Both the position numbers and the translations under genes were made by a program. Positions 4,599 through 58,890 of a stretch of DNA of 64,000 bases are shown one piece after another; positions within the stretch are counted from its first letter, which is position 1; each line of letters opens with the position of its first letter. Source of the stretch: a virus; the IMG/VR virus record IMGVR_UViG_3300045988_117149. One strand, 5' to 3'. The notes under the pieces were generated by a model. It made no database searches. It was given only the letters and a program-made list of their open reading frames with translations, and was not told the origin of the DNA.

Positions 4599-5180
4599 CT
4601 ATCTTTTACTACCTCTACTCTCTTTGTTTTCATAACTGTTATTTAATATATTACGAATTACCCTATCACCAACTCCAAATCTCTTTCCTAGAACCCTTAA
4701 TAAAGTTTTGTTTACTTTCCATTTAGTAAACCCTAATTGGATTAGTTCAGATAGTAATGTATTATAATAAGCTTTTACTTTAGGTATATCATTTAAGTTT
4801 AATTTACGATGTATATTATCCTTACCCATTACTGAAATCAGATTATTACCATCCCTGATAGATTGGTGTACATTTTCTTTCTGGGTACCCCATTTTAGAT
4901 TCTTATAATAATTATTATAAATATCGTTATCTAAGTGCATTACTACAGGTAAATTATTGGGGTTAGGTACATAAACAGTAGCTACTAATCTGTGAACAAA
5001 AATCTTTGTAGACTTACCATCCCTATAAAGGGATACACTATAGTATTTGGGACGTTTCTTTGGTATTAGTGGGGTAAACTCATTACTTAATTTACCCCTA
5101 CTTCCTCGGACATATCTTGAATATACGCTCCCAGTTTTAGAAACGTAGTATCCCATAAATCCTGGTATATTATCTTTCAT
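4599..5180 (-). CDS. free-standing HNH homing endonuclease (NUMOD4 / HNH_3-like with C-terminal HTH)
   Basis: IPGFMGYYVSKTGSVYS (NUMOD4-like), then VMHLDNDIYNNYYKNLKWGTQKENVHQS (HNH_3-like). TAATG overlap with the helicase stop. Confidence 0.85.
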   Translation of the reverse strand: MKDNIPGFMGYYVSKTGSVYSRYVRGSRGKLSNEFTPLIPKKRPKYYSVSLYRDGKSTKIFVHRLVATVYVPNPNNLPVVMHLDNDIYNNYYKNLKWGTQKENVHQSIRDGNNLISVMGKDNIHRKLNLNDIPKVKAYYNTLLSELIQLGFTKWKVNKTLLRVLGKRFGVGDRVIRNILNNSYENKESRGSKR

Positions 5181-32200: not shown

Positions 32201-35200
32201 ATTCTGGTCGATTTTTGCCTCCAATCGGATATCTTCGGATTTACGAGTAGCAATTTCACTTTCCAACAAATCCTTGATGGCAGTGTAATTACCATTAACG
32301 TTATCTTGAATACCCTGGATTAGTTCCAAGTTACGTTGGATATTTGCCGAATTCTGATTTACCAAAGCATTGGTAGCATTCAGAGAAGTTAACAACTCTG
32401 TACGAGTTTCACTAACGAAAGTTCTCAAATCATTTACCGTTGTGGTAAGAGTAGTACTCAGGTTAGTGAAAGATTGTTGCAGGTTATCGTCTCCTTGTTC
32501 ACGCAAGTTCTTTTCAGCAGTAAGCTTATTTTCTAATTCAGTAAGCTTAGCAGTCATAGTTGCAGCGAAATTTGGGTCATCCCCTAATGCCTTAGCAATC
32601 TCTGCTAGAGTATCAAGTACTTCAGGTGCAGAACCAATAATCTTTTGGATAGCTGCCTCTACTTGTTCTGCATTCTGGAAATCAGAATCATTGAGTAATT
32701 CTGATACCTTCGTAATGTAGTTAGCATGTTCTTCGATGCCATCAAGTTTAGCATACAGAAGGTCGGTAAAATCATTTGCAGAAAGACCCTTGCCATCTAC
32801 TTTGTCTACCTTCTTATTATCCATTGCCTGGTCTGCAGCAGTACGGTCTGCCTTTTCCTGAGCAATAGCATTATTAATAAGGGTATCTTGATTAGCACGT
32901 TCTGTGGCCTCCTTATCGATATTGGTTTGCAACAGAGTATCACCTGCCAAACGTTCGTTCTTCTCAGTAAGGATATCCTGGTTGATAGCAGCCATGTCAT
33001 CCTTGTGATTCTGAAGATTGGTATCAATCTTTGCCTCAAGAGAAGTTTCCTTGGCAATTGCCCGGTCTTTCTCTGTATTGATTGCAGTGGTATTATTCTT
33101 AACCTGCTCTTTGAGGTCATTCATAGCAGTCGTATTGCCTGCCTCTAGAGTATCAATACGAGCTCCCAATGCAGTATCAGCCGCAGCTCTGTCCGTTTTT
33201 TCTTGGTCAATCTTGGTATTCAATTTACCTACCTCTGATTCCAAAGCTTGTTTGGTATTATCCAACTTAGCAGTGAATTCTGTAGACAAGGCTTTATCTG
33301 CAGCAGTACGGTCTGCTACTTCTTTATCGAGATTTACCTGAAGAACTTGGTCTGCAGCTGTTCTCTCAACACGTTCAGTGTTAAGGTCGATATTTACATT
33401 ATCAATACGAGAACTCAAACCACTGTCAGCATTAGTACGGTCAACGATTTCCTCGTTAATCATATCCTTAACCTCCTTGTAGTTATCACCTACTGTCTTG
33501 GTTAAGTTAGTGATGGCTTCTGAGTTTCTTTCGATATCGTGCTGATTAGTAGCGATAGCAGTAGTATTCGCATTAACCTGTTCCGTAAGTTCATTACGAA
33601 GAGTGTTAATAGAATCCTGAATGCTCAAAGCCAATTCTGAAACACGTTTGTTTACGTTATTCAAACTTACAGTGTAAGCCTCATCAGCAGTCTTTCTGTC
33701 GGCAATTTCCTTATCCAAGCTTGCCTGGATTGCGGCATCTGCATCTTTACGGTCTTGGATTTCTTTGTTCAAGTTATCCTTAACTACATTAAGAGCAGTA
33801 TCACCAGCAGTGGATTTATTGTCGATATATTCTTTCAGTTTAGTTTCAAGAGCAGTATCTGCAGCAATTCGGTCTGCCTTTTCTGTAGCTACCTCTGCAC
33901 TGTTTGCAGCATCACCAGCAATACGGTCTTCCTTCTCTTGGTTAATCTCCTCGGTTAAGGCAGCTAACTTCTTGGTGATAGTTGTTGCAAAGTTGGGGTC
34001 ATTACCAAGAGCATCGGCAATTTCCTTCAAGGTATCAAGTACCTCGGGAGCAGAACCTACAATTTTCTGAATAGCAGCATTAACTTGCTCTTCATTTTGG
34101 AAGTCCATATCATTAATCAACTCAGAGAGCTTGGTAATGTAATTGGCTTTCTCTTCAATACCGTCAAGCTTAGCTTTGAGAATATCCGTAAAGTCATTCT
34201 TAGTCAATGAATAACCTTCACGTTTATCTACCTTCTTATTATCAAGAGCAGTATCTGCATCTTTACGAGCCTGAGTTTCAGTAGCAATAGCTTCTAACAG
34301 TTGAGTCTTATCTGCTTGACCTTGGAGTTTTACATCCTCAATCTTATGATCCAAAACCAAATCCTGAGCAGCACGAGCAGTAGCTTCGGAATCAATATTA
34401 TTCTGAAGTACCTGGTCTGCAGAGGTACGAGCTTGAGCCTCTTGGTCAATTTTACCTTGCAAAGCATTATCTGCATTAGTACGGTCAGCTACCTCTTTAG
34501 AAATTTCATTATGAAGAACTTGGTCCTCAGAATGACGGTCTACTGCTTCCTGGTCAATCTTACTCTGCAATGCTTGAGTATCTGATTGGCGATTAGTGAT
34601 TTCCTCATTAATCTTAGAATCCAGAATAGTATCTGCATTCGTACGATTAGATACCTCTTCAGCAATCTTGGCTTCAAGAGCAGCCTTGTCATTGATGTGA
34701 AGAGTTTTGAGTTCATTTACACTTTCCTTGATTTCGTTATCGGCAGCGATACGTTCGTCCTTTTCTTGTTGGATGAGGCTCTTAAGTTCATCCTTAATCT
34801 CATCGCTCTTATCGTTTACCTTATCATTGAGATCCTTAATGTCTTCGGCATTTTTATCTGCCTTAGCTTCTACCCGAGCAATATCAGCTTTCAAGTCTGC
34901 CTTAACAGTATCAATTTTGTTGATTAACTGTTCAGCAGCATATTTCAAGTTATCATCTACCGCAGCAATAGCAGCACCCAATGCAGCTTCTGCTTCCTTA
35001 GCACGACTTACTTCCTCGCTAAGAGAAGTACGAAGCTCGGTAAGTTTATTTGTGATAGTTGTTGCAAAGTTGGGGTCATTGCCCAAGGCTTCTGCCAACT
35101 CCTTAAGAGTATCAAGAGCATCATCAGCACCATCAACCAGGTCACTGATTGCCTTCTTAACATCCTCTTCAGTTTGGAACTTGAGATCATTTTCAAGCTC

Positions 35201-43924: not shown

Positions 43925-44536
43925 CTAAAAGTTATACGTTATTTGAAATTCGATGTCAGTACCTATCCCAGATTTTATCTTCGGATAGTAAAATGTATTG
44001 ACCCCGAGTTTGTAATTAAATCTCTTAGTCTTGATTGAAAGACCAGCTCCCATATCGAAGAGATTATTGAAAGGTCTGTATTTGCCATAGACGTATGGAC
44101 TAAGTGATAGCCTTGCAACTTTCTTTCGAGTTAATTGACCCTCATACCAGTTGTAGTTGTACTTATCCAAATCGATATTGAATAGTCTAGTTGAATAAGT
44201 TCCTAATTGTTGATTCAGGAAACTTAAGTTCAACTGATTCTTCTTTAAGACAACTTGAACCAGGGAATCTTGTTTACTGATAACTGGCTGTCTTATGGAA
44301 TCAGGAAAGAGAGTTGACTGCTTCTTGTTATCGTAAACTAAGATTTTACCTGGTTGAGTTTCTTCAGAGTACTTCTTCTCTGGTTTGAAGGGTTTGTCTG
44401 AGTAGACTGTATCTGGGATTTCATTGACCGCTTGATTCAGAGAATAAACTTCTCGAGTCAGTTTGTAATTCCTGAAGCAAAGGTAAATAGTAAATCCTAG
44501 AAGTACAATGAACAAGGCCCATTTTAATTTCTTCAT
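43925..44536 (-). CDS. secreted/anchored beta-rich protein with OMP-like C-terminal signature
   Basis: N-terminal MKKLKWALFIVLLGFTIYLCF. C-terminal alternating-hydrophobic strands ending ...DIEFQITYNF (terminal Phe). Confidence 0.5.
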   Translation of the reverse strand: MKKLKWALFIVLLGFTIYLCFRNYKLTREVYSLNQAVNEIPDTVYSDKPFKPEKKYSEETQPGKILVYDNKKQSTLFPDSIRQPVISKQDSLVQVVLKKNQLNLSFLNQQLGTYSTRLFNIDLDKYNYNWYEGQLTRKKVARLSLSPYVYGKYRPFNNLFDMGAGLSIKTKRFNYKLGVNTFYYPKIKSGIGTDIEFQITYNF

Positions 44537-44776: not shown

Positions 44777-45826
44777 CTAGTGATTCCGTTTAAGGCATTT
44801 CTTAAACCAAATCCCCACCTCATAAACCGAACCCTTGGCAATTGTGTACCTTGCCTTGTTTAACCAATAATGGTGATTTTTAAAATCCCCTTCATAGGTA
44901 TCACCTCTGGTAGTTTTGTAGAGGTAAATTTTAAATTTCTCTGGGAATCCCATGATTGCCTTGAAATCCTCAACTCCCAATGGGTACCCATCTGGTCTAA
45001 ATTGCCTATCTGCAGGTCTCAAGGTTAATGGAGGTTTATCATCTTCCAATCGATATACTCCCGGGAGAGTACTCATCTTAGTTGTCTTGATAGGCCACTT
45101 CTTTTCCTTGTTGAAGTCTCTAACCCAGAGTCTATGTATCTTTGCTACTGTAAGATTCTTTTTCTCTGGTAGCTTTCGATAGTCATACATTGCCAGGGTT
45201 TTTGCCATAAATGGAATTTGGTTAGTATCAATTTCAGAGCTAAACGTTAGCGGCTTAAGCAACTCTCTAGTTGTCTTTAGTTCATTAACTTTAAATACTT
45301 CATCAAAAGCATTTAAGTATTTCTTACCGGTCTTCTTATGAACTCCAATGATGAGTAATCTCTTCCTTGACACTTGAGAGTTCCCATAGTCAGAAACTGA
45401 CCTTTCATGAAAAACTAATTTATAGTCTTTCAGTGTTTCCTCAAAGAAATCCTTGGGTAGCAAGGATAGTAGTCTTGGTAGATTTTCTATAAGAAATACC
45501 TTAGGTTTATACTCTAATATTGCAGCAATTACTAGATTAAGACTACGATTATCCTGGGGATTGCCCAACTCCTTTACTTTTGATAACCTCATAACTGAGG
45601 ATGCACCACAGTCTGGGGATGAAATTATGATATCTACTTTCTCATCAAATTCTTGTAAACAGAAACCCTTGTAGAATGGTATATCCCCAAAGTTGAGTTT
45701 CCATTGTTCTTCGCCCGGTGTATGGAATACTCCTCTAATCTCTATATTCCCTAACAAATTTTTCTTAAAAGGGAACAGGAGTGCACCCTGTCCAGCGCAC
45801 ACTCCCAATACCTTTAGATTCTTCAT
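44777..45826 (-). CDS. DNA (cytosine-5)-methyltransferase
   Basis: Motif I VCAGQGA, motif IV SPDCG, motif VI IENLPRLL, motif VIII QVSRKRLLIIGV. Confidence 0.8.
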   Translation of the reverse strand: MKNLKVLGVCAGQGALLFPFKKNLLGNIEIRGVFHTPGEEQWKLNFGDIPFYKGFCLQEFDEKVDIIISSPDCGASSVMRLSKVKELGNPQDNRSLNLVIAAILEYKPKVFLIENLPRLLSLLPKDFFEETLKDYKLVFHERSVSDYGNSQVSRKRLLIIGVHKKTGKKYLNAFDEVFKVNELKTTRELLKPLTFSSEIDTNQIPFMAKTLAMYDYRKLPEKKNLTVAKIHRLWVRDFNKEKKWPIKTTKMSTLPGVYRLEDDKPPLTLRPADRQFRPDGYPLGVEDFKAIMGFPEKFKIYLYKTTRGDTYEGDFKNHHYWLNKARYTIAKGSVYEVGIWFKKCLKRNH

Positions 45827-51107: not shown

Positions 51108-51575
51108 ATGAATATGAGAAGTACAGATTACATAAGTAAGGGAACTGCAGTAGCAAGGCTATATAAGGCAAGGGAATACCTATTAATGGATAAAGATTGT
51201 AGGAAGGGCTTATGCTTTTACCTAAGGTCAGTAGATATCCTGGATTACCTCGAAGAGATTGGGATATGGAATTTAGATACCTTCAGTATAGAAGTTCTAT
51301 GGGCCTATGAGGATTTTATAAATAGAAGTTGTATAGTGGCTATGGGAAATGTGAAAGTAGTGGAGAGAAAGTTGAATACCATGTATAGTTGGAAGGATAG
51401 CTTTGATGCTAGGAGTTCATCCAAAGAGATATGGGGAATAGCAAGGGATTCTATCCCTGAGATTTCTCAAAAGAATTTCTATTGGTGGGACCCAAATGAT
51501 AGAGAGGTAAGGGTGAAGGCAATCGATTTATTAATTAATAAGGTAATGAAGTATGGTGAAGGAAAAGAAGATTAG
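51108..51575 (+). CDS. hypothetical Trp-rich protein, member 1 of a + strand tandem set
   Basis: 155 aa. Ends ...KYGEGKED, with the next gene's ATGGTGAAGG embedded in it. Confidence 0.55.
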   Translation: MNMRSTDYISKGTAVARLYKAREYLLMDKDCRKGLCFYLRSVDILDYLEEIGIWNLDTFSIEVLWAYEDFINRSCIVAMGNVKVVERKLNTMYSWKDSFDARSSSKEIWGIARDSIPEISQKNFYWWDPNDREVRVKAIDLLINKVMKYGEGKED

Positions 51576-51918
51576 GAAAGTGTTCGAAGAAATATACCAA
51601 GAGCAGTTAGCTAAACATAGGAGAGGAGGAACAATACAGAATCTTTGTAGGGTAATTAAAACCCATTGTGTTTTGAATGGGTATTCAACTTTATGGATAG
51701 AGATTCAGCAATGGTTTAAACCTGAAAGATATGGTTTAACGGAGTTATATTATACGATAGATGTTAATACCCCTACCCCGATTGAGATGATTCCTTATGA
51801 GGATAGAGATAGGTATTATTGGTTTCCTGTACATCAGGTATATAATTTGAAGAGATTGGAGATTCTTGAAATGGAGATAGATAATCAATTAAAGGAGGAA
51901 GGTTATGGTGAAGGTTGA
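51553..51918 (+). CDS. hypothetical Trp-rich protein, member 2
   Basis: 121 aa. YYWFP...RLEIL parallels FYWWDP...AIDLL in member 1. Ends ...GYGEG. Confidence 0.55.
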   Translation: MVKEKKIRKVFEEIYQEQLAKHRRGGTIQNLCRVIKTHCVLNGYSTLWIEIQQWFKPERYGLTELYYTIDVNTPTPIEMIPYEDRDRYYWFPVHQVYNLKRLEILEMEIDNQLKEEGYGEG

Positions 51919-52168
51919 GACTTTGAAGGAAGATGGGTTTGTTAGAATCCTAAGATGTAGGGAAGGTAATAGGATTTGGTATCAGATGTGGCTTACCGAT
52001 TTGGAGAAGGGTTGCATTGATAGATATTTCCTTGATATGGAAGTTAAGGCTTGGTGGTTGATTAATCTTCAGAGATGGTATGTTTTCTTTTATGAGAAGA
52101 ATGGTAGGAGAGTTAGGGGAGTATTGGGGAAAGATAGGACTAAGGATTTACTTAGGAGTATTTTGTAG
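51905..52168 (+). CDS. hypothetical Trp-rich protein, member 3
   Basis: 87 aa; starts with the same ATGGTGAAGG as member 2. Confidence 0.5.
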   Translation: MVKVETLKEDGFVRILRCREGNRIWYQMWLTDLEKGCIDRYFLDMEVKAWWLINLQRWYVFFYEKNGRRVRGVLGKDRTKDLLRSIL

Positions 52169-52710: not shown

Positions 52711-53121
52711 TTACTTCATTGATTTTTTCACGATTTCGAGACCTTTTATTAATATCGCTTTCTTTTCTTCTTTTGTATTCTCACTTGCAATTGAATTAAA
52801 TGAAAAATCATTTAATGTATAGACTTGTTTATAAAAGTCTATAAAGCCCTCAATTAGTTTTTTATCTGCATTGTTTGCAATCGTTGAAAGAAAATTGAAA
52901 GTTACGTTTCTGAACTTTTTACGTAACGATTTGATTTGCTTTTCGTTTGCACCCTCAAAAAGTTCTTTTTTGTAAATTTCTGTTTTTGTCCCTAAAGAAG
53001 TTTTGAAAAGACCAGCATTTTTTTCTTTAACGCTTTTCAATACGTCTAAAGCAATTAAACTATTTGCTTTTGCGTTTGCACTTGCTTTTTCTACATTTAC
53101 ATTATTAATTTGCTTTTTCAT
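52711..53121 (-). CDS. hypothetical Lys-rich protein (AT-rich island)
   Basis: 136-aa ORF behind two tandem promoters. Confidence 0.6.
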   Translation of the reverse strand: MKKQINNVNVEKASANAKANSLIALDVLKSVKEKNAGLFKTSLGTKTEIYKKELFEGANEKQIKSLRKKFRNVTFNFLSTIANNADKKLIEGFIDFYKQVYTLNDFSFNSIASENTKEEKKAILIKGLEIVKKSMK

Positions 53122-53233
53122 AATAAAATGCTTGAAAGTTTTATTATTAATTATTTTTATTACCTTTTCAAATAGACCCTCAAGACTTTTTAAACTATTC
53201 TAATAAGGTAGTATTTATTTCATTTCTGTATTG

Positions 53234-53241
53234 CAAATATA
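53234..53241 (-). promoter_or_regulatory. promoter: -7 box TATATTTG with -33 TTTG (53261-53264) at 19-nt spacing
   Basis: The reverse complement of caaatata and of caaa; a full two-element match. Confidence 0.7.
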
Positions 53242-53339
53242 AGAACTATTTTTTAATCTACAAAATTTTTAGAGAATTATTTTCTTAAAAAGTTTTAATT
53301 AAAAATTTATTCAAATATCTTTTTGTTTTTCTCACATTG

Positions 53340-53347
53340 CAAAGATA
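53340..53347 (-). promoter_or_regulatory. second tandem promoter: -7 box TATCTTTG with -33 TTTG (53367-53370) at 19-nt spacing
   Basis: About 106 bp upstream of the first copy. The flanks are homologous (attgcaaaGATAcggactttattttaatctacaaa versus attgcaaaTATAagaactattttttaatctacaaa). Confidence 0.65.
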
Positions 53348-53612
53348 CGGACTTTATTTTAATCTACAAACATTTTCAAGAAAATTTTTTGAGAAAATGA
53401 ATATTTTTATTTTCAAAATTATTTTCGTGAAAAATTCATAAAATAGAAAATATTGTGCACCCTAAAAGGACTTAATATTTGCACTTAATTTTGGAGGTTC
53501 ACAAGGGAAATCTTCACACGCCTTGTAGTGGGCATATATGATATGTATATAGGTAATCCTATATAGCTTATGCCTGTCCTCTTGAGAGTGTATTATATAC
53601 CTGTATATTGAA

Positions 53613-53624
53613 GGCCATTAATGG
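53613..53624. repeat. palindromic motif GGCCATTAATGG, copy 1
   Basis: Exact; the core CCATTAATGG is its own reverse complement. Confidence 0.9.
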
Positions 53625-53782
53625 ACTAAGGTGATAAAGAATTAAGGCCAATTAGCTATATCCATATTATTGCCATCTATAAACCTATTAGGTCCTAATT
53701 CAATAAGGCCATATAGGGACTATGGTAAGCCTATAGAGATTAGGATAGCCTATAAGGGCTTACTAAGTTAGCGTAAGTAAAA

Positions 53783-53807
53783 ACCCAGTACTTAGGTAAG
53801 CCTGGGT
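53783..53807 (-). terminator. terminator after ORF 53819-54205
   Basis: The - strand reads ACCCAG-13 nt-CUGGGU followed by UUUUU, 12 nt after the stop. Confidence 0.55.
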
Positions 53808-53818
53808 CAAAGTTAGGA

Positions 53819-54205
53819 TTAGAGAGTATAGGGATGGGTAACGATATATGTATTATTGATATAGGTTACTGTAGGGGCAAGAGGTGAAGCCTCATAATCG
53901 AGAGGGAATGCTTTGTGTAATTCGTAGGAGCAAAGCTGTTCTTGTCTAGTATTCAGTTCGTTATCTGAATAGAATATTAGTGTATGTAAGCCATCGCCTT
54001 CTTCTTCGTTCTCTGTTGAGGTAATTGAGATTAGGTGAAAGCCTTGTTTGAGAAATTCTGAGTCTTTGTCAAGAGAACCGAGATAGCAATTGAGGTATTC
54101 GGTATAGCCCTGTACTGAAGGATTAGAAGCATTAGAGATTACTAAGGCATTATTAGTAAGTTCTGATTCAGTGTTGAGAACGAGGTACTTAATATTATTT
54201 TTCAT
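53819..54205 (-). CDS. hypothetical early protein
   Basis: 128-aa ORF with its own promoter and terminator, embedded in repeat-rich non-coding DNA. Confidence 0.6.
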   Translation of the reverse strand: MKNNIKYLVLNTESELTNNALVISNASNPSVQGYTEYLNCYLGSLDKDSEFLKQGFHLISITSTENEEEGDGLHTLIFYSDNELNTRQEQLCSYELHKAFPLDYEASPLAPTVTYINNTYIVTHPYTL

Positions 54206-54247
54206 AATGTTTAAAAATTAAATTGTTAGTATTTCTTTTTCTTTCTA

Positions 54248-54255
54248 CAAAGATA
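54248..54255 (-). promoter_or_regulatory. promoter -7 box TATCTTTG
   Basis: The reverse complement of caaagata, 43 nt upstream of the ATG at 54205. TTGC lies 19 nt further upstream. Confidence 0.6.
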
Positions 54256-54327
54256 CAAATAATAAATAATATATGCAATATGCCCCATTTGCCTTCGTAG
54301 GTTATTGATGGCCTTATAAATCCCCTG

Positions 54328-54339
54328 GGCCATTAATGG
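54328..54339. repeat. palindromic motif GGCCATTAATGG, copy 2
   Basis: Exact; followed after 1 nt by GATTGCCTT (54341-54349), an inverted copy of AAGGCAATC. Confidence 0.9.
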
Positions 54340-54408
54340 AGATTGCCTTAATCCTAATTTGCCCAGTACCTACTAATATATAATACTATATAAACTAACC
54401 TGAGGCAA

Positions 54409-54426
54409 AAGGCAATCAAGGCAATC
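54409..54426. repeat. two directly abutting copies of AAGGCAATC
   Basis: aaggcaatcaaggcaatc. Further copies at 54640-54648 and 54800-54808, and inverted copies at 54341-54349 and 54872-54880. Confidence 0.9.
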
Positions 54427-54663
54427 GAAATCACCAAATTGTCCTAGAGTTCTGCAAATAATGCTAATATAAATACTAAGCCAATTACTTACATAGTTAC
54501 TAGGAATATTGCCTAAATATTACCTATAAAAGCCCTAATTCCTATTTACCATTTAGCCTTAAAACCCTAATCCTATTTGCCTAATCACAAATCCTAACTC
54601 CAATACTTATTATATAATACCTAATATAATAACTTGGTGAAGGCAATCAAGGTAAATTGTGAT

Positions 54664-54675
54664 GGCCATTAATCG
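54664..54675. repeat. palindromic motif, copy 3 (GGCCATTAATCG, 10 of 12)
   Basis: Lies 15 nt after AAGGCAATC at 54640. Confidence 0.7.
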
Positions 54676-54807
54676 ACGATGTACTAAAGCTATACTACCC
54701 ACATACATAGAAGCTACATAACATACCTGTATTATATAATCCCCTACCTTCGAATTACCTTGAATGCAATCTATAATATAATACATATAAAGGGTACTCA
54801 AGGCAAT

Positions 54808-54827
54808 CGGATTTAGACGGATTTAGA
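54808..54827. repeat. tandem CGGATTTAGA x2 (partial third copy at 54841-54847)
   Basis: cggatttagacggatttaga abuts the palindrome at 54828. Confidence 0.85.
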
Positions 54828-54839
54828 GGCCATTAATGG
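54828..54839. repeat. palindromic motif GGCCATTAATGG, copy 4
   Basis: Exact. Flanked by AAGGCAATC (54800) and its inverted copy (54872). Confidence 0.9.
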
Positions 54840-55152
54840 TCGGATTTTGTGTACCTTTTAGGCCTTTTTGTGATTGCCTTTAAAGTGTGTAGTAGAGCTA
54901 TATGGTATAGTGGCTATATAGTGAGTTGAGTGGCTTTGTATAGTAGTAGGTAGGTACCTAGATCTCATTCTCAATTTTTCCCACCCCCGGCGAGGTACCC
55001 CAAGGGAAGGAAGGTAAGTATGTATTATGATTAGTATATGTTATATTGATGGTATATAGGATAGGTGTATTAGTTATATGTGTACCTTAGTTAGCGCTAT
55101 TAAGATTTTGATTATTTGTTTTGTTTGGTGGGTAGTATGTGGATGGGTAGTA

Positions 55153-55353
55153 TTATAGGATTACCTTGAATAGGTATTCGATTAGGATATTGTATAGTAA
55201 TAGGTATATTAGGTACTTGGTTATTATGTAGGCTTTGGGATATTTTATTTGGTTTTCTTTGTGTTGGGAGTAGGTCTTCTCTACGTCTAGGATCCTTAGT
55301 AGGAAGTAGAGCCCTACTAAGGATTTGGATAATATGTATAGGATTTGTATCAT
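55153..55353 (-). CDS. small hydrophobic early protein
   Basis: 66 aa; ATGA overlap with the upstream gene. Confidence 0.45.
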   Translation of the reverse strand: MIQILYILSKSLVGLYFLLRILDVEKTYSQHKENQIKYPKAYIITKYLIYLLLYNILIEYLFKVIL

Positions 55354-55610
55354 AATTCTGGTATTCCTTGTTTCTGTATTACGGTTCCTCCTCGATTAAA
55401 GGATATCTCTTGGCATTCTAAGTGTATTGTCTCGAAGTATTCCTGGATGCCCTGAAGACTGAAGAAGGTTAATTTCTCGTTACCGTATATGTTATTTACC
55501 TGGTCTATGATTTCTTGTTTGGCTTTGGTAGGGTCCTCATTGAGGGAATGTATTATATCCTGTACTTCGTTATCTTCGATAATTACTAAGGTAGTGATTG
55601 TTATTTTCAT
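55350..55610 (-). CDS. hypothetical early protein
   Basis: 86-aa ORF, 3 nt after the upstream stop. Confidence 0.55.
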   Translation of the reverse strand: MKITITTLVIIEDNEVQDIIHSLNEDPTKAKQEIIDQVNNIYGNEKLTFFSLQGIQEYFETIHLECQEISFNRGGTVIQKQGIPEL

Positions 55611-55613
55611 GTT

Positions 55614-55892
55614 CTAGTCGATATATAGGTTATACTTAATGTTTTCTAGTGTGAAGGATATGAAGGGTTTTTCCTCTGTTTCTTCCTTGGGATAGGCATT
55701 GAGGATTAGGTCATCCGTATTTAGGATTAGGTTTACTTCCTGTCCTCCATTAGTTGTGATGATGGTGATATCTTCCTCAAGGTCTCTGTCTTTCTCATCG
55801 CCCAGTGAATTAAGGAGGATAGCCGACCATGGATAATCTTGGACCTGTGATATAAGGATGATAAGCAGTTGGTTAAAAGCTCTTGTTGTCAT
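55614..55892 (-). CDS. hypothetical acidic early protein
   Basis: 92-aa ORF behind the promoter at 55955. Confidence 0.55.
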   Translation of the reverse strand: MTTRAFNQLLIILISQVQDYPWSAILLNSLGDEKDRDLEEDITIITTNGGQEVNLILNTDDLILNAYPKEETEEKPFISFTLENIKYNLYID

Positions 55893-55954
55893 AATGTTAA
55901 TGTGTTAGTGACCCGTTCGAGGTCGGTTAATATTATATTTTTATTTCTCTATTG

Positions 55955-55962
55955 CAAATATA
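55955..55962 (-). promoter_or_regulatory. promoter -7 box TATATTTG
   Basis: Reverse complement of caaatata, in the context TCGTATATTTGCAAT. TTGC lies 19 nt upstream. Confidence 0.65.
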
Positions 55963-56007
55963 CGAAATAAATATAATACGTGCAAATTAATATAATAATA
56001 TATGGGG

Positions 56008-56241
56008 TTAACTGGGTACCCTAATGAAGTCCAGTATTTCGATATCATAATAGGGCATTCCCATTAGTTCTCGGATTACCTGTTTGGTAAAATATACATG
56101 TAGGTGATTAGGATTTAATGTTTGCCTTGGATATCTGAGATATGGGTTTAATTCTTCAGTACGATATGTAACAAGGAAAGGCTCGCAAAAGCCTTCTCCT
56201 TGAATATTAAATGATACCAGGAATGTGTCTTTAGTTATCAT
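56008..56241 (-). CDS. hypothetical early protein
   Basis: 77-aa ORF; no clear promoter of its own. Confidence 0.5.
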   Translation of the reverse strand: MITKDTFLVSFNIQGEGFCEPFLVTYRTEELNPYLRYPRQTLNPNHLHVYFTKQVIRELMGMPYYDIEILDFIRVPS

Positions 56242-56302
56242 ATCAGTATGGGTATTAGTTGTGTATTTTCGATTGTTAAAACCGTATCTTTTGTTAAAGG
56301 TC

Positions 56303-56337
56303 GGGAACCGATACCGAATATAGTGATAGCGGTTCCC
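56303..56337 (-). terminator. hairpin after ORF 56385-56675
   Basis: GGGAACCG-19 nt-CGGTTCCC, a perfect 8-bp stem 48 nt after the stop; the T-run is weak. Confidence 0.45.
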
Positions 56338-56384
56338 TGAGGTAGTCTAATCATTAATAGGAAGATGATGTAGTCTTTCATTTG

Positions 56385-56675
56385 TTACCCGAAATAGAAT
56401 TTGCATAAGTCTTCTATGAAAGTCTCTTCTTCGTCCATGATTGTATCGGATTGTATGTATTCAAATTTGAATTGAGAATAGAATGGTCCGAATATCAGTA
56501 TCATTATGTTATCTTGCAGGTCGCATAATGATTGTTCCTCCTCTTCAGAGAGAGTAGATTGGTCCTTGTTAATGATATCAGAATAATTCTTAAGCAGAGC
56601 CTTGAGATTCTGAATACCTTCTGGGTTATTGGTTTCTATATCCAGCAATGTGGATTTCATTTCTTCTGTAATCAT
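56385..56675 (-). CDS. hypothetical acidic early protein
   Basis: 96 aa, rich in Asp/Glu (SEEEEQS, MDEEETFIED). Confidence 0.55.
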   Translation of the reverse strand: MITEEMKSTLLDIETNNPEGIQNLKALLKNYSDIINKDQSTLSEEEEQSLCDLQDNIMILIFGPFYSQFKFEYIQSDTIMDEEETFIEDLCKFYFG

Positions 56676-57061
56676 GATTGTATAGTTTTATAGGGTTTAG
56701 CAATTACTGATATGAACCCTTGTGGATATTGGGTATATAACAGTTGGAATGATACACCTTCTACGTTTGGTAAAAATACCCGTATGATATTTGCGAGCAA
56801 TGGGTAGATTTTCCATTGGTTCTCGTCCAGGAATTGTTGCCATTCAGCATGTTCATCCTCGTCATAGTTACCTGTTAGTTGGATATGGTATCCCTCTGGT
56901 GGAGGTGTAGGAAGAAATAAGTTGGTTACAACTTCGATTTCGTTGGTTTCCTTTTTGTATTGAGAGATAGGATACCAGATACCTTCGGTTTTCCATTTGT
57001 CTAATTGGAACAGGGTCATTCCCTGTTCCAGTGCGTTAAGCAGTTTGTATAAGTTTACCAT
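56672..57061 (-). CDS. hypothetical early protein
   Basis: 129-aa ORF; ATGA overlap with the downstream gene. Confidence 0.55.
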   Translation of the reverse strand: MVNLYKLLNALEQGMTLFQLDKWKTEGIWYPISQYKKETNEIEVVTNLFLPTPPPEGYHIQLTGNYDEDEHAEWQQFLDENQWKIYPLLANIIRVFLPNVEGVSFQLLYTQYPQGFISVIAKPYKTIQS

Positions 57062-57067
57062 AGTTGA

Positions 57068-57574
57068 TTAGAGTTTATTGATTGTTTCTGAAATGTAAAG
57101 CCCAGAGAATAATTCCGTTTCTCTGTGATCTGATTCGTATTTTTCGAGTGATTCAAGAGTATCGGAATATTGAGATATCATGTCTTCGTCATTTTCCTCG
57201 TTAGCAATGAAGTTTCTTAAATGGGTTTTGAGACCTTCGATTGTATAATCTTGGTGTTCAAGAGTTAATTGAGGAATAGCATAAATGATAGCCTCTACCT
57301 GTGAAGGAGAATAATCGTAGTATTGGTCATCGGCACCCTCTTCTAAGTCCATTGATTTGATATTTGATTTGATATCATTGAAGAGAATATCTTCGTTGGG
57401 ATAGATGCAAAGAGTAGCAGATGCACCTTGGTAATCGTCGGTTTCCTCGATGTCAATTTCAAAGATTTCGATACCGTCTGAAACTGAAAGACCTTCTGTG
57501 TAATCGAAAGTATGAAACTTGTTAGCATCGATTATCGATTTGAGTTCGGGGAGGGTTTTAATAATTTTTTCCAT
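57068..57574 (-). CDS. strongly acidic early protein
   Basis: Start moved to the ATG at 57574 (MEKIIKTLPELK), because the track start at 57613 lies inside the promoter. Many D/E runs (DIEETDDY, EEGADDQYYDY, NEENDEDM). Confidence 0.6.
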   Translation of the reverse strand: MEKIIKTLPELKSIIDANKFHTFDYTEGLSVSDGIEIFEIDIEETDDYQGASATLCIYPNEDILFNDIKSNIKSMDLEEGADDQYYDYSPSQVEAIIYAIPQLTLEHQDYTIEGLKTHLRNFIANEENDEDMISQYSDTLESLEKYESDHRETELFSGLYISETINKL

Positions 57575-57615
57575 TTTGTCTATATTAAAAATTGTTTGAG
57601 AAATATTTCTCACTG

Positions 57616-57623
57616 CAAATATA
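57616..57623 (-). promoter_or_regulatory. promoter -7 box TATATTTG
   Basis: Reverse complement of caaatata, 42 nt upstream of the ATG at 57574. Confidence 0.6.
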
Positions 57624-57674
57624 CAAAATTATTTTATAACTTGTATCACTATATAATATTATTTTTAAAAATAG

Positions 57675-57711
57675 AGAGGTACTCAGTTTTGGTTATGTAC
57701 TGAGCACCTCT
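57675..57711 (-). terminator. rho-independent terminator
   Basis: 13-bp stem (AGAGGUGCUCAGU / ACUGAGUACCUCU, one G:U pair) followed by CUAUUUUUAAAAA, 19 nt after the stop at 57730. Confidence 0.75.
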
Positions 57712-57729
57712 GAGGATATATAGAACTGG

Positions 57730-58296
57730 TTAGGGAATTATTGGTAGGCCATTATCTTCATTGAAATATCTTAATTTCCTTCGAGTTATTCGGCCTTCCT
57801 TTTCCTTTAATCCGTCTACCCACTTGGGATAGGATTTTATGGTAGTTTCGGTTTTATTACCATGATTATCTTTAATGATTACAAAAGAATCTTCTATGGT
57901 GATCTTATAAGTACTTCGATAGGTAGTAATGGTTTCTGGTATGCAGATGATTCCCTCTGATTTACGCATGCCTGCGTTTGTAGCCTTAGGATAATCTGTA
58001 TATTTAATAATACCGTTCTCAGTAGTAGCATAATGTAACCTTCTTCGGGTTATTCTTTTACCGTATGAAAGTTTCAGCTTGCTATACCAGGTTTGGTATT
58101 CCTCTAGAGAATTAAGCATAATAATTTGACTTGTTCCTTTAGCAGGAGTCTTAGATTTACTTATGGCTTGCTGAATAAGGATTTTATCAGGTTGCATAGT
58201 TAGCGAATATACAACCCGTTTGTAATTAAAGCTGAATACTGAACCAGAGGAGCATTCTATTTCCTCTGGTACGATAATAGGTTTTTGTTCATTCAT
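57730..58296 (-). CDS. hypothetical early protein with internal duplication
   Basis: Two halves each end in G(K/R)RITRR(R/K)L(H/R)Y...(E/D)NG. Confidence 0.6.
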   Translation of the reverse strand: MNEQKPIIVPEEIECSSGSVFSFNYKRVVYSLTMQPDKILIQQAISKSKTPAKGTSQIIMLNSLEEYQTWYSKLKLSYGKRITRRRLHYATTENGIIKYTDYPKATNAGMRKSEGIICIPETITTYRSTYKITIEDSFVIIKDNHGNKTETTIKSYPKWVDGLKEKEGRITRRKLRYFNEDNGLPIIP

Positions 58297-58469
58297 AATG
58301 TATACTCCTTTCTGATATCATCAAATTGTAGTAATGTCTTAAGTATCTTAGTTTTAGACCAAGTAGGTTCAAAGCCTATGCAAGGTATATATTCGTTATG
58401 AGGTACGAATAAAGTCATCCGACCTTGTTTTTGTAGGTCGGATTTTAGTTTCTTGTAATTAGTAGCCAT
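58293..58469 (-). CDS. hypothetical 58-aa protein (not in ORF track, below its size cut-off)
   Basis: MATNYKKLKSDLQKQGRMTLFVPHNEYIPCIGFEPTWSKTKILKTLLQFDDIRKEYTL. The ATG lies 2 nt after the upstream stop, and its TGA overlaps the next ATG (ATGA). Confidence 0.55.
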   Translation of the reverse strand: MATNYKKLKSDLQKQGRMTLFVPHNEYIPCIGFEPTWSKTKILKTLLQFDDIRKEYTL

Positions 58470-58471
58470 AG

Positions 58472-58855
58472 TTATGATATTCTGAAGTTAAGTTGATAAA
58501 TCCAATTATTGGAATCCATCTTAGTGAACGAGATGAATATACCATCGTTATCCGTGAACTTTTGCATGAATTTCAGAGCAGCATCAGCAGCTTGATTCTT
58601 TTTCTCGGTAGTATCAAGAGTTACCATACTCTCTAAGATGAAAGTGTAATAGGTAGTCTCATATTGACTGAAACAATTGATGTCTATCACCTGGAGATTG
58701 TGTAGTTCTGATAACTGGTATAGTTCAGTCATTAATAGGTTGTAGAGATTCTTTTTCTCATCTCGATCTAAATCAAAGTCGGATTTGTTCTTTATGAACT
58801 TAGTTACTACTTGAGCAAGTTGTTCATCCTGATTGTAAGTTACTGGGCTTCTCAT
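58472..58855 (-). CDS. hypothetical early protein
   Basis: Start moved to the ATG at 58855 (MRSPVTYNQ); the track start at 58885 lies inside the promoter box. Confidence 0.55.
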   Translation of the reverse strand: MRSPVTYNQDEQLAQVVTKFIKNKSDFDLDRDEKKNLYNLLMTELYQLSELHNLQVIDINCFSQYETTYYTFILESMVTLDTTEKKNQAADAALKFMQKFTDNDGIFISFTKMDSNNWIYQLNFRIS

Positions 58856-58882
58856 ATTTTTGTCTATTTTAAATTTGATATG

Positions 58883-58890
58883 CAAATATA
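58883..58890 (-). promoter_or_regulatory. promoter: -7 box TATATTTG with -33 TTTG (58910-58913) at 19-nt spacing
   Basis: Full two-element match. The leader is near-identical to the one at 61187-61213. Confidence 0.7.

Follow-up and report, generated by a model that had tools for sequence, protein, structure and literature searches.

Flandersviridae-like phages have been detected in human guts about as often as crAss-like phages; they are reported to encode PolA, the published read coverage of one such genome is even, assemblies are circular, and the question of whether they persist as episomes has been raised (Benler et al., PMC8008677). The closest description of a long untranslated repeat region comes from phage T5, in which such regions lie within the 10-kb terminal repeat of a fixed-end genome and carry eight DnaA boxes (bioRxiv 10.1101/866236). 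Here we analysed a 64,000-nucleotide stretch of viral DNA (IMG/VR record IMGVR_UViG_3300045988_117149), hereafter the window, in which ~1.5 kb of repeat-dense non-coding DNA surrounds one small gene, the open reading frame (ORF) ORF128. Gene content, gene order, and the ~85-kb size of related contigs match the candidate family 'Flandersviridae' of Benler et al. 2021 (PMC8008677), and on these grounds the window is assigned to a 'Flandersviridae'-like Bacteroidetes myovirus of ~85 kb. The repeat region falls within the Flandersviridae '~20-kb locus of unknown ORFs', immediately before the lysis/structural block. On the evidence of its sequence, the ~1.5-kb stretch is a conserved intergenic control region in the early, cassette-swapping part of the phage genome. 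Its core (54350-54980) is probably a DNA-level, protein-bound cis-element, and we tentatively propose that the array of sites in it may be the lytic replication origin of the phage.

The most informative fact about this region, missed by the preliminary description of this DNA, is that conservation is higher in the non-coding blocks than in the genes next to them. Carriers of ORF128 came from IMG/VR (nine loci) and from several contigs of ENA and Logan, and a search pattern taken from site II (54328-54347) retrieved more than 100 further loci, giving 82 distinct relatives with enough flank to be aligned. The non-coding blocks were 80-92% identical, with full coverage, in these 82 relatives. 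ORF128 was found in only 23 of them, and the genes to the right of 55150 were mostly different (swapped) among relatives. It should be noted that the conservation of block II follows by construction from the search pattern, and that blocks III to VI are free of this bias. Block III is the most conserved of the promoter-less blocks. Beyond the aligned relatives, MT121964 represents a different genus (its portal is 64% identical) and its non-coding DNA could not be aligned, and a comparison of the core with GTDB representative genomes gave chance matches only, with no prophage or episome copy.

Apart from ORF128, no credible ORF had been noticed in this stretch, and the gap proved to be real: stop-codon recoding, conserved small ORFs, tRNAs, and Rfam families all fail to account for it. 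Reading TAG, TGA, or TAA as sense, each in turn, opened no long ORF in the region. No tRNA or transfer-messenger RNA was found there, and Rfam gave nothing, even with E allowed to reach 1. The region contains no conserved micro-ORFs, since ORF63, ORF38, ORF33, and ORF66 have no codon-position bias and are interrupted by stops in many relatives, and ORF 54610-54801 has no coding signature. ORF 55153-55353 has in-frame stops in 10 of 14 aligned relatives and no third-codon-position bias, so that the non-coding DNA reaches ~55349, beyond the limit previously set for it. Furthermore, no canonical promoter was found on either strand in 54256-55349.

The repeat-dense character reported for this stretch was confirmed, and its recurring words lie far above shuffle expectation. 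In repeat density the region is among the top 1.5-kb windows of the 64 kb, with a score of 72-79 against a mean of 27 ± 15 for the whole window, and of 75 against 18 ± 5.6 in shuffles. The A word GGCCATTAATGG occurs exactly at 53613, 54328, and 54828 and has no other exact copy in the window. A fourth copy had been described at 54664 as matching at 10 of 12 positions; this copy, GGCCATTAATCG, in fact matches at 11 of 12. Allowing up to one mismatch, CCATTAATGG has 11 matches (3.0 ± 1.9 in shuffles), and every exact copy of the palindrome is confined to the region, as had been observed. The six reported copies of the B word AAGGCAATC were all recovered, at 54409, 54418, 54640, and 54800 on the plus strand and at 54341 and 54872 on the minus strand; they make up six of the nine copies in the window (0.58 expected in the region), the others being at 35147, 44954, and 51516. 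All six matches to the C word TATTATATAATAC at up to one mismatch fall in the region, where 0.46 were expected, and so do all TATTATATAATA-type words of the window, the one at 54608 being a perfect palindrome. The word AAGGCCA likewise recurs where it had been reported, at 53611, 53644, and 53705 and, inverted, at 54309, and GGGTAGTA has two direct copies (55129 and 55144) and an inverted one (54693). The recurring order of words that had been noticed, C-B-A, is a diverged tandem duplication of ~164 bp (54608.. versus 54772..), of which module M3 is one copy. A motif scan of the window showed that the motifs are not equally frequent throughout and are concentrated in the region; the outlying B words apart, the region's words do not recur elsewhere in the window. 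Among relatives, the B words are mostly lineage-specific; the TTGCC copies that come close to being universal are only those at 54289, 54343, and 54874. The GATTGCC of site II and the nearby CATTTGCCTT (54289) are kept in 75-82 of the 82 relatives, and the tandem B words of variable segment 1 in only 5-40.

The A sites have a single orientation throughout. A second GGCC follows the A site at exactly +33 bp in two places (53613/53646 and 54828/54861) with unrelated spacers, and the same spacing was seen in 107 A-site instances among relatives, in which other distances below 80 bp hardly occur. Such a fixed spacing is characteristic of a bipartite protein-binding site. The region has a 3.3-fold enrichment of GGCC and holds the densest GGCC cluster in the window (8 copies in 1.3 kb). 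In MT121964, GGCC is most densely clustered (13 in 1.3 kb against ~1.2 expected) at the same map position, in a stretch that has AAGGCC words and a single GGCCTTTAATG. In the region itself, AT-only runs of 11-18 bp, including the palindromic TATTATATAATA, are present, and a tract of 18-20% G+C lies at 53100-53440. Conservation above that of the flanking genes, the lack of ORFs, promoters, and RNA structure, the one-orientation sites at fixed spacing, and the syntenic GGCC cluster together argue that the core is probably a protein-bound cis-element acting at the DNA level.

The preliminary description had offered an origin, a packaging or terminal-repeat region, and a cluster of operator sites as explanations. 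Among the cis-element readings we rank a phage lytic replication origin first; it is our best single guess for the promoter-less core, at a probability somewhat short of even. The ~730 bp from hairpin V to the ORF128 promoter, together with module M1 (53586-53660), would be untranscribed from any recognisable promoter and would act as DNA. The array would consist of sites for a phage DNA-binding protein, with GGCC(AT)TAATGG as the unit in one orientation, paired twice with a GGCC 33 bp away, and with TTGCC-type words and the easily melted TATTATATAATA between. The bound protein may then open the AT palindromes or the adjoining tract of 18-20% G+C, and may load the phage DnaB-like helicase, DnaG-like primase, and PolA. 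Consistent with this proposal, GC skew flips from negative to positive at ~54800-54860 (-0.36 in 54400-54599, +0.24 in 54800-54999, and +0.71 in 55000-55199), which is the polarity expected at an origin. The array is the only repeat array found in the window, with no other iteron-like array in the window's part of the replication module, and the presence of phage helicase and primase genes in the window also counts for an origin.

Several findings weigh against an origin. Cumulative GC skew, which had been suggested as a check, has its extremes over the 64 kb near 47 kb and 59 kb and not in the region. No Rep-, O-, or DnaA-like initiator and no other DNA-binding gene was found among the neighbours, with 64 of the ~85 kb covered by the window and 21 kb outside it, and neither ORF128 nor a neighbouring 136-aa protein has an informative fold or family. 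DnaA boxes occur at chance level in the window and do not cluster in the region. The G+C content of the core (31-36%) is like that of the genome and not below its average. Exact AAGGCAATC is poorly kept among relatives, and its copy number in the window is unusually high. In addition, some relatives have a real gene whose CAAGGTAAT-ATG follows the AT palindrome after 23 nt, and the palindrome could be a non-canonical promoter instead of an unwinding element. As for the skew itself, the coding strand is C-rich and A-rich in the early minus-strand genes at 55350-58885 and G-rich in the late genes, which also lie on the minus strand, and this contrast in composition makes cumulative skew rise from ~47 to 59 kb without a change in gene orientation.

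The features of the region are collected in Table 1. Its outer parts punctuate minus-strand transcription, as the predicted signals at hairpin V and at the promoter and terminator of ORF128 show. In minus-strand order, an upstream early operon and its long 3' region are followed by hairpin V, ~730 bp without a recognisable promoter, the promoter, ORF128, its terminator, module M1, an AT-rich tract with two tandem strong promoters, and the 136-aa gene. The ORF128 promoter (54248-54278) is the sole zero-mismatch match in 53400-55400 in a strict TAnnTTTG scan and is kept in relatives. The fold of the ORF128 terminator (-12.2 kcal/mol, z -2.8), hairpin plus T run, is kept in nearly all relatives; one variant shows compensatory changes on both sides (CCCAG/CUGGG to UCCAG/CUGGA), and others have an alternative GC hairpin. 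Hairpin V (-20.3 kcal/mol, z -2.3 in the window) is followed by TTTT in most sequence types (~66 of 83 sequences) and by GGGAAAAA in the window, and its U.G to C-G variation is compatible with minus-strand pairing only. A promoter and two terminator-type hairpins are thus present, which bears out part of the suggestion of a regulatory hub. The other part, the palindrome as an operator, is weak. The common variants GGCCCCTAATGG and GGCCATGAATGG break the 10-bp dyad without compensation, which argues against a symmetric operator. No A site overlaps a promoter, the only one being 72-91 bp or more away, and all A sites share one orientation.

Table 1 Features of the non-coding region and its surroundings, with window coordinates
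Feature	Coordinates	Strand	Content or remarks
Conserved non-coding block	53442-53612		Downstream of M1 in the minus-strand sense
Candidate TAATTTTG box	53486-53493	+	From a strict promoter scan
Module M1	53586-53660	+	AT palindrome word GTATTATATA 53590; A site GGCCATTAATGG 53613-53624; partner GGCC 53646
Conserved block I	53700-53812		
Intrinsic terminator of ORF128	53781-53812	-	Hairpin, then U run, directly after stop codon
ORF128, cassette gene	53819-54205	-	Acidic, pI (isoelectric point) 4.5; replaceable among relatives
Conserved block II	54200-54350		
Host-type (Bacteroidetes) promoter of ORF128	54240-54278	-	TTG, 20 nt, TATCTTTG; box 54248-54255
Site II	54303-54349	+	Inverted degenerate A TTATTGATGGCC 54303-54313; GGCCATTAATGG 54328-54339; GATTGCCTT 54341-54349
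Variable segment 1	54351-54425		Indel-rich, between blocks; AT palindrome word 54374-54386; tandem AAGGCAATC 54403-54426
Conserved block III	54426-54575		AT-rich core AATGCTAATATAAATACTAAGC inside inverted repeat TCCTAG...CTAGGA; 81-92% identity, 100% coverage, 82 relatives
Variable segment 2, cassette slot	54576-54785		Indel-rich, between blocks; module M3: TATTATATAATA 54608, AAGGCAATC 54640, GGCCATTAATCG 54664
Conserved block IV and module M4	54785-54945	+	AAGGCAATC 54800; A site 54828-54839; GGCC 54861; GATTGCCTT 54872-54880; G/T-rich stretch; block 80-90% identical, 82 relatives
Conserved block V: hairpin V, terminator-like GC hairpin ACCUCGCCGGGGGU	54983-55000	-	Kept in relatives
Conserved block VI	55078-55128		
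Block VI and two GGGTAGTA copies	55078-55152		TGTACCTTAGTTAGCGCTATTAAGATTTTG...
Non-coding DNA once called ORF 55153-55353	55153-55349		Includes 13-bp hairpin 55291-55323

The conserved block at 53442-53612 has a weak plus-strand consensus fold (-18.8 kcal/mol, z -2.5). Within 53455-53493, the 13-mer GCACTTAAT(T/A)AT is present in one to three tandem copies among relatives, which alters the spacing between an upstream TTG and the plus-strand TAATTTTG box. Module M1 has a degenerate second A copy, GGCCATATAGGG, at 53707, and the perfect copy is that at 53613 or that at 53707, depending on the relative. The stretch 55078-55152 holds one of the four GCGC sites of the 64 kb. The perfect 13-bp inverted repeat at 55291-55323 (-18 kcal/mol, z -4.4) lies just past the stop codon of ORF 55350-55610 and has no U run on either strand. 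All homologues of ORF128 are at least 73% identical to it and none is named; ORF128 has no Pfam or PHROG match, and its structure model (predicted local distance difference test score, pLDDT, 67) no fold match. ORF128 was rejected as the binding protein, being acidic, without a fold match, and missing from most relatives. The 136-aa gene (52711-53121, minus strand), behind the two tandem strong promoters, encodes an extremely conserved, basic (pI 9.8), all-helical protein. It has 2255 database matches, of which the top 120 are at least 96% identical, and no Pfam, PDB-profile, or PDB fold match (model pLDDT 82).

Relatives form three classes by the length of the interval between hairpin V and site II: ~490-510, 636-662, and 710-800 bp. 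In the longest class, variable segment 2 holds a gene for a protein of 126-144 aa, found in 14 of ~127 loci and not in the window. The protein is lysine-rich (for example, at 2336-2770 of locus L015, and also in L006, L092, L108, and others) and has a weak N-terminal match to an HNH-endonuclease PHROG (E = 0.014). Upstream of this gene lie an A site, a TTGCC word, TATTATATAATAC, 23 nt, CAAGGTAAT, and ATG, and the window retains the same upstream module without the gene. That a module with the C word stands upstream of a real gene is the strongest reason to consider the C word a possible non-canonical promoter.

This slot bears directly on the strongest rival to an origin, namely that the stretch is an early-region regulatory and recombination scaffold, in which promoter, terminator, and untranslated-region modules flank swappable cassettes and serve as homology arms in the manner of the promoter-early stem-loop (PeSL) elements. 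Such a scaffold would include a middle-type promoter, made of TATTATATAATA with GGCC and TTGCC sites for an activator, and the empty modules M3 and M4 would be orphans of cassette loss. The reading certainly holds for the outer parts, and the PeSL concept is published (PMC4122927). The ORF128 cassette has a conserved promoter on one side and a conserved terminator on the other, the slot of variable segment 2 holds a gene in some loci and a module without one in the window, and the early promoters include near-identical copies. Boxes of the TAnnTTTG type with an upstream TTG are found in minus-strand intergenic DNA at 53234, 53340, 54248, 55955, 57616, 58883, and 61214. The promoters at 58883 and 61214 have ~40 nt in common, including the 5' untranslated region and start codon, and that at 55955 has two matches in MT121964, 1350 bp apart; this repetition of early promoters looks like the PeSL style. 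However, PeSLs are small and occur at many junctions, whereas the 730 bp here are single-copy in the window and kept in all relatives, and the other six early promoters are without A, B, and C words. The TTGCC and TATTAT words are separated by a variable 17 to 24 nt, and the box used by Bacteroidetes sigma-A is TAnnTTTG and not TATAAT; on these two grounds TTGCCT-N17-TATTAT was also rejected as a sigma-70-like promoter of general validity. Orphan remnants, moreover, would be expected to decay and not to stay 80-92% identical. Overall, we regard the scaffold as somewhat unlikely. The seven Bacteroidetes-type promoters (TTG, N19-20, TATATTTGCA) stand at the heads of small-gene operons, and the T4-type late promoter TATAAATA was tried and occurs at chance level.

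Non-coding RNAs would also fit blocks that are conserved without ORFs, either from the plus-strand TAATTTTG box at 53486 and antisense to ORF128, or from the minus strand and ending at hairpin V. The changes tolerated in a hairpin at 53503-53530 are G.U-compatible only if the plus strand pairs, the pairing of hairpin V is compatible with the minus strand only, and there is a modest plus-strand consensus fold at 53455-53620. The consensus structure of blocks III and VI, by contrast, amounts to 0 to -3 kcal/mol and the other energies are weak; sliding-window fold z-scores were unreliable where shuffle energies were near zero and were not used. The extended inverted-repeat arms of block III, up to 14 bp in L015, vary independently and do not covary. 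With no Rfam match and no canonical promoter inside 54256-55349 either, RNA products of the region appear decidedly unlikely. Packaging is a further candidate: the region might be a pac site for headful packaging at which TerS recognises the array of GGCC words, with cutting perhaps gated by the C5-methylase of the phage, by analogy with the Dam-gated pac site of P1. The T4 gp17-like TerL suggests headful packaging, and the C5-methylase gene (44777-45826) adjoins those for TerS and TerL and shows conservation between genera, as judged from its 80 closest relatives and from MT121964 as the other genus. GGCC clusters occupy a syntenic spot in two genera, and the ends of ~85-kb contigs are ~5-fold enriched in the window-equivalent interval 52.3-55.5 kb. 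Known pac sites lie in or beside terS. The array, by comparison, lies ~9 kb from the putative terS (43925-44536). The methylase has no PDB sequence relative, published coverage is even (PMC8008677), and the contig ends are scattered over 3 kb, with others at homopolymers, which fits assembly breaks at repeats and variable DNA. A pac site is improbable. The same goes for a related proposal, also drawn by analogy, that the GGCC array might be a methylation-read cis-element, in which the phage C5-methylase would mark GGCC and a protein on GGCCATTAATGG-N21-GGCC would time origin firing or packaging; we give it equally little probability. The least probable reading is the one first raised as a genome terminus, that is, a physical end, a terminal repeat, or a DNA-transfer signal like that of the T5 iss. 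It draws on the resemblance to the T5 untranslated repeat regions (bioRxiv 10.1101/866236) and on the contig ends nearby. However, in full-length contigs of ~85 kb the region lies internally and at arbitrary coordinates, the end position differs between all contigs, TerL is T4 gp17-like, DnaA boxes do not exceed chance, and assemblies are circular with even coverage (PMC8008677), all of which make a terminus very doubtful.

The ends of the near-full-length contigs (L199-L274) pile up 3-8 kb upstream of the methylase gene, at window-equivalent 48.8-55.5 kb; some are at poly-G, poly-C, and poly-T runs in the BACON-gene region, and others are scattered over 52.3-55.5 kb. Short palindromes strongly avoided in the window are GCGC (observed/expected 4/79), CGCG (3/79), GATC (26/218), and CTAG (73/218), and GGCC and CCGG are not avoided. 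Avoidance of restriction, together with protection by the C5-methylase of the phage, is the probable cause of this pattern.

The window comes from a tailed phage, and almost all of its genes are on the minus strand. At the left end are the replication genes (DnaB-like helicase, primase, and a second helicase), with an HNH endonuclease gene (4599-5180, minus strand) inserted between the DnaB-like helicase and the primase. The structural genes encode TerL, portal, protease, major head protein, sheath, tape measure, and baseplate, and there are also genes for a muramidase, the C5-cytosine methylase, and three BACON-domain proteins. A plus-strand cassette of three genes (51108-52168) has a GC skew of +0.4 to +0.64 and is missing from several relatives (for example, L004). 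It has two exact 13-mers, GTATAGTGGCTAT and GGTGAAGGCAATC, in common with the non-coding region. We found no report of a cultured isolate of Flandersviridae-like phages in the literature searched.

A single-copy, non-coding element of ~1 kb that outlasts the genes around it is a prime origin candidate in phages common in the gut. If it is an origin, it would be useful for Bacteroides shuttle vectors and engineered phages, and the present analysis offers concrete motifs in GGCC(AT)TAATGG, the GGCC at +33, and TATTATATAATA. If it is only a regulatory scaffold, it documents PeSL-like cassette exchange outside the T4 group, and a methylation-read element, if true, would be a cytosine-methylation counterpart of the Dam/GATC control at oriC and P1 pac.

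Four known systems invite comparison. Like the GATC clusters of P1 pac and Escherichia coli oriC, the region has a local 4-bp methylatable palindrome, here GGCC, in a phage that encodes a C5-cytosine methylase; in contrast to P1 pac, the array lies far from terS, and control by methylation is here a hypothesis. With the PeSL cassettes of T4-type phages it shares an early promoter and a stem-loop terminator that bracket variable ORFs in a hyperplastic early region, as well as near-identical promoter copies at several junctions. PeSLs are short and many-copy, whereas the 730-bp core here is single-copy and promoter-less and has its own set of motifs. The region partly resembles iteron-type origins (lambda ori, P1 oriR, and iteron plasmids) in its cluster of short repeated words, putatively bound by protein, beside easily melted AT-rich DNA in a non-coding island conserved within the lineage, in the fixed 33-bp spacing of its sites (~three helical turns), and in a local switch in strand composition. 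In contrast to them, the words here are of 9-12 bp and partly inverted, not regular tandem iterons of 17-22 bp, no adjacent initiator gene or DnaA boxes were found, and the genome-scale skew extreme is elsewhere. The untranslated repeat regions of T5 (iss) differ in their genomic setting, since in the phage described here the terminase is T4-like, genomes assemble as circles, and DnaA boxes form no cluster. They are nevertheless the best descriptive parallel (bioRxiv 10.1101/866236): in both, a stretch of over 1 kb that is rich in palindromes and in direct and inverted repeats outconserves the neighbouring ORFs and keeps its order across relatives, and a gene of the HNH or homing type interrupts some members.

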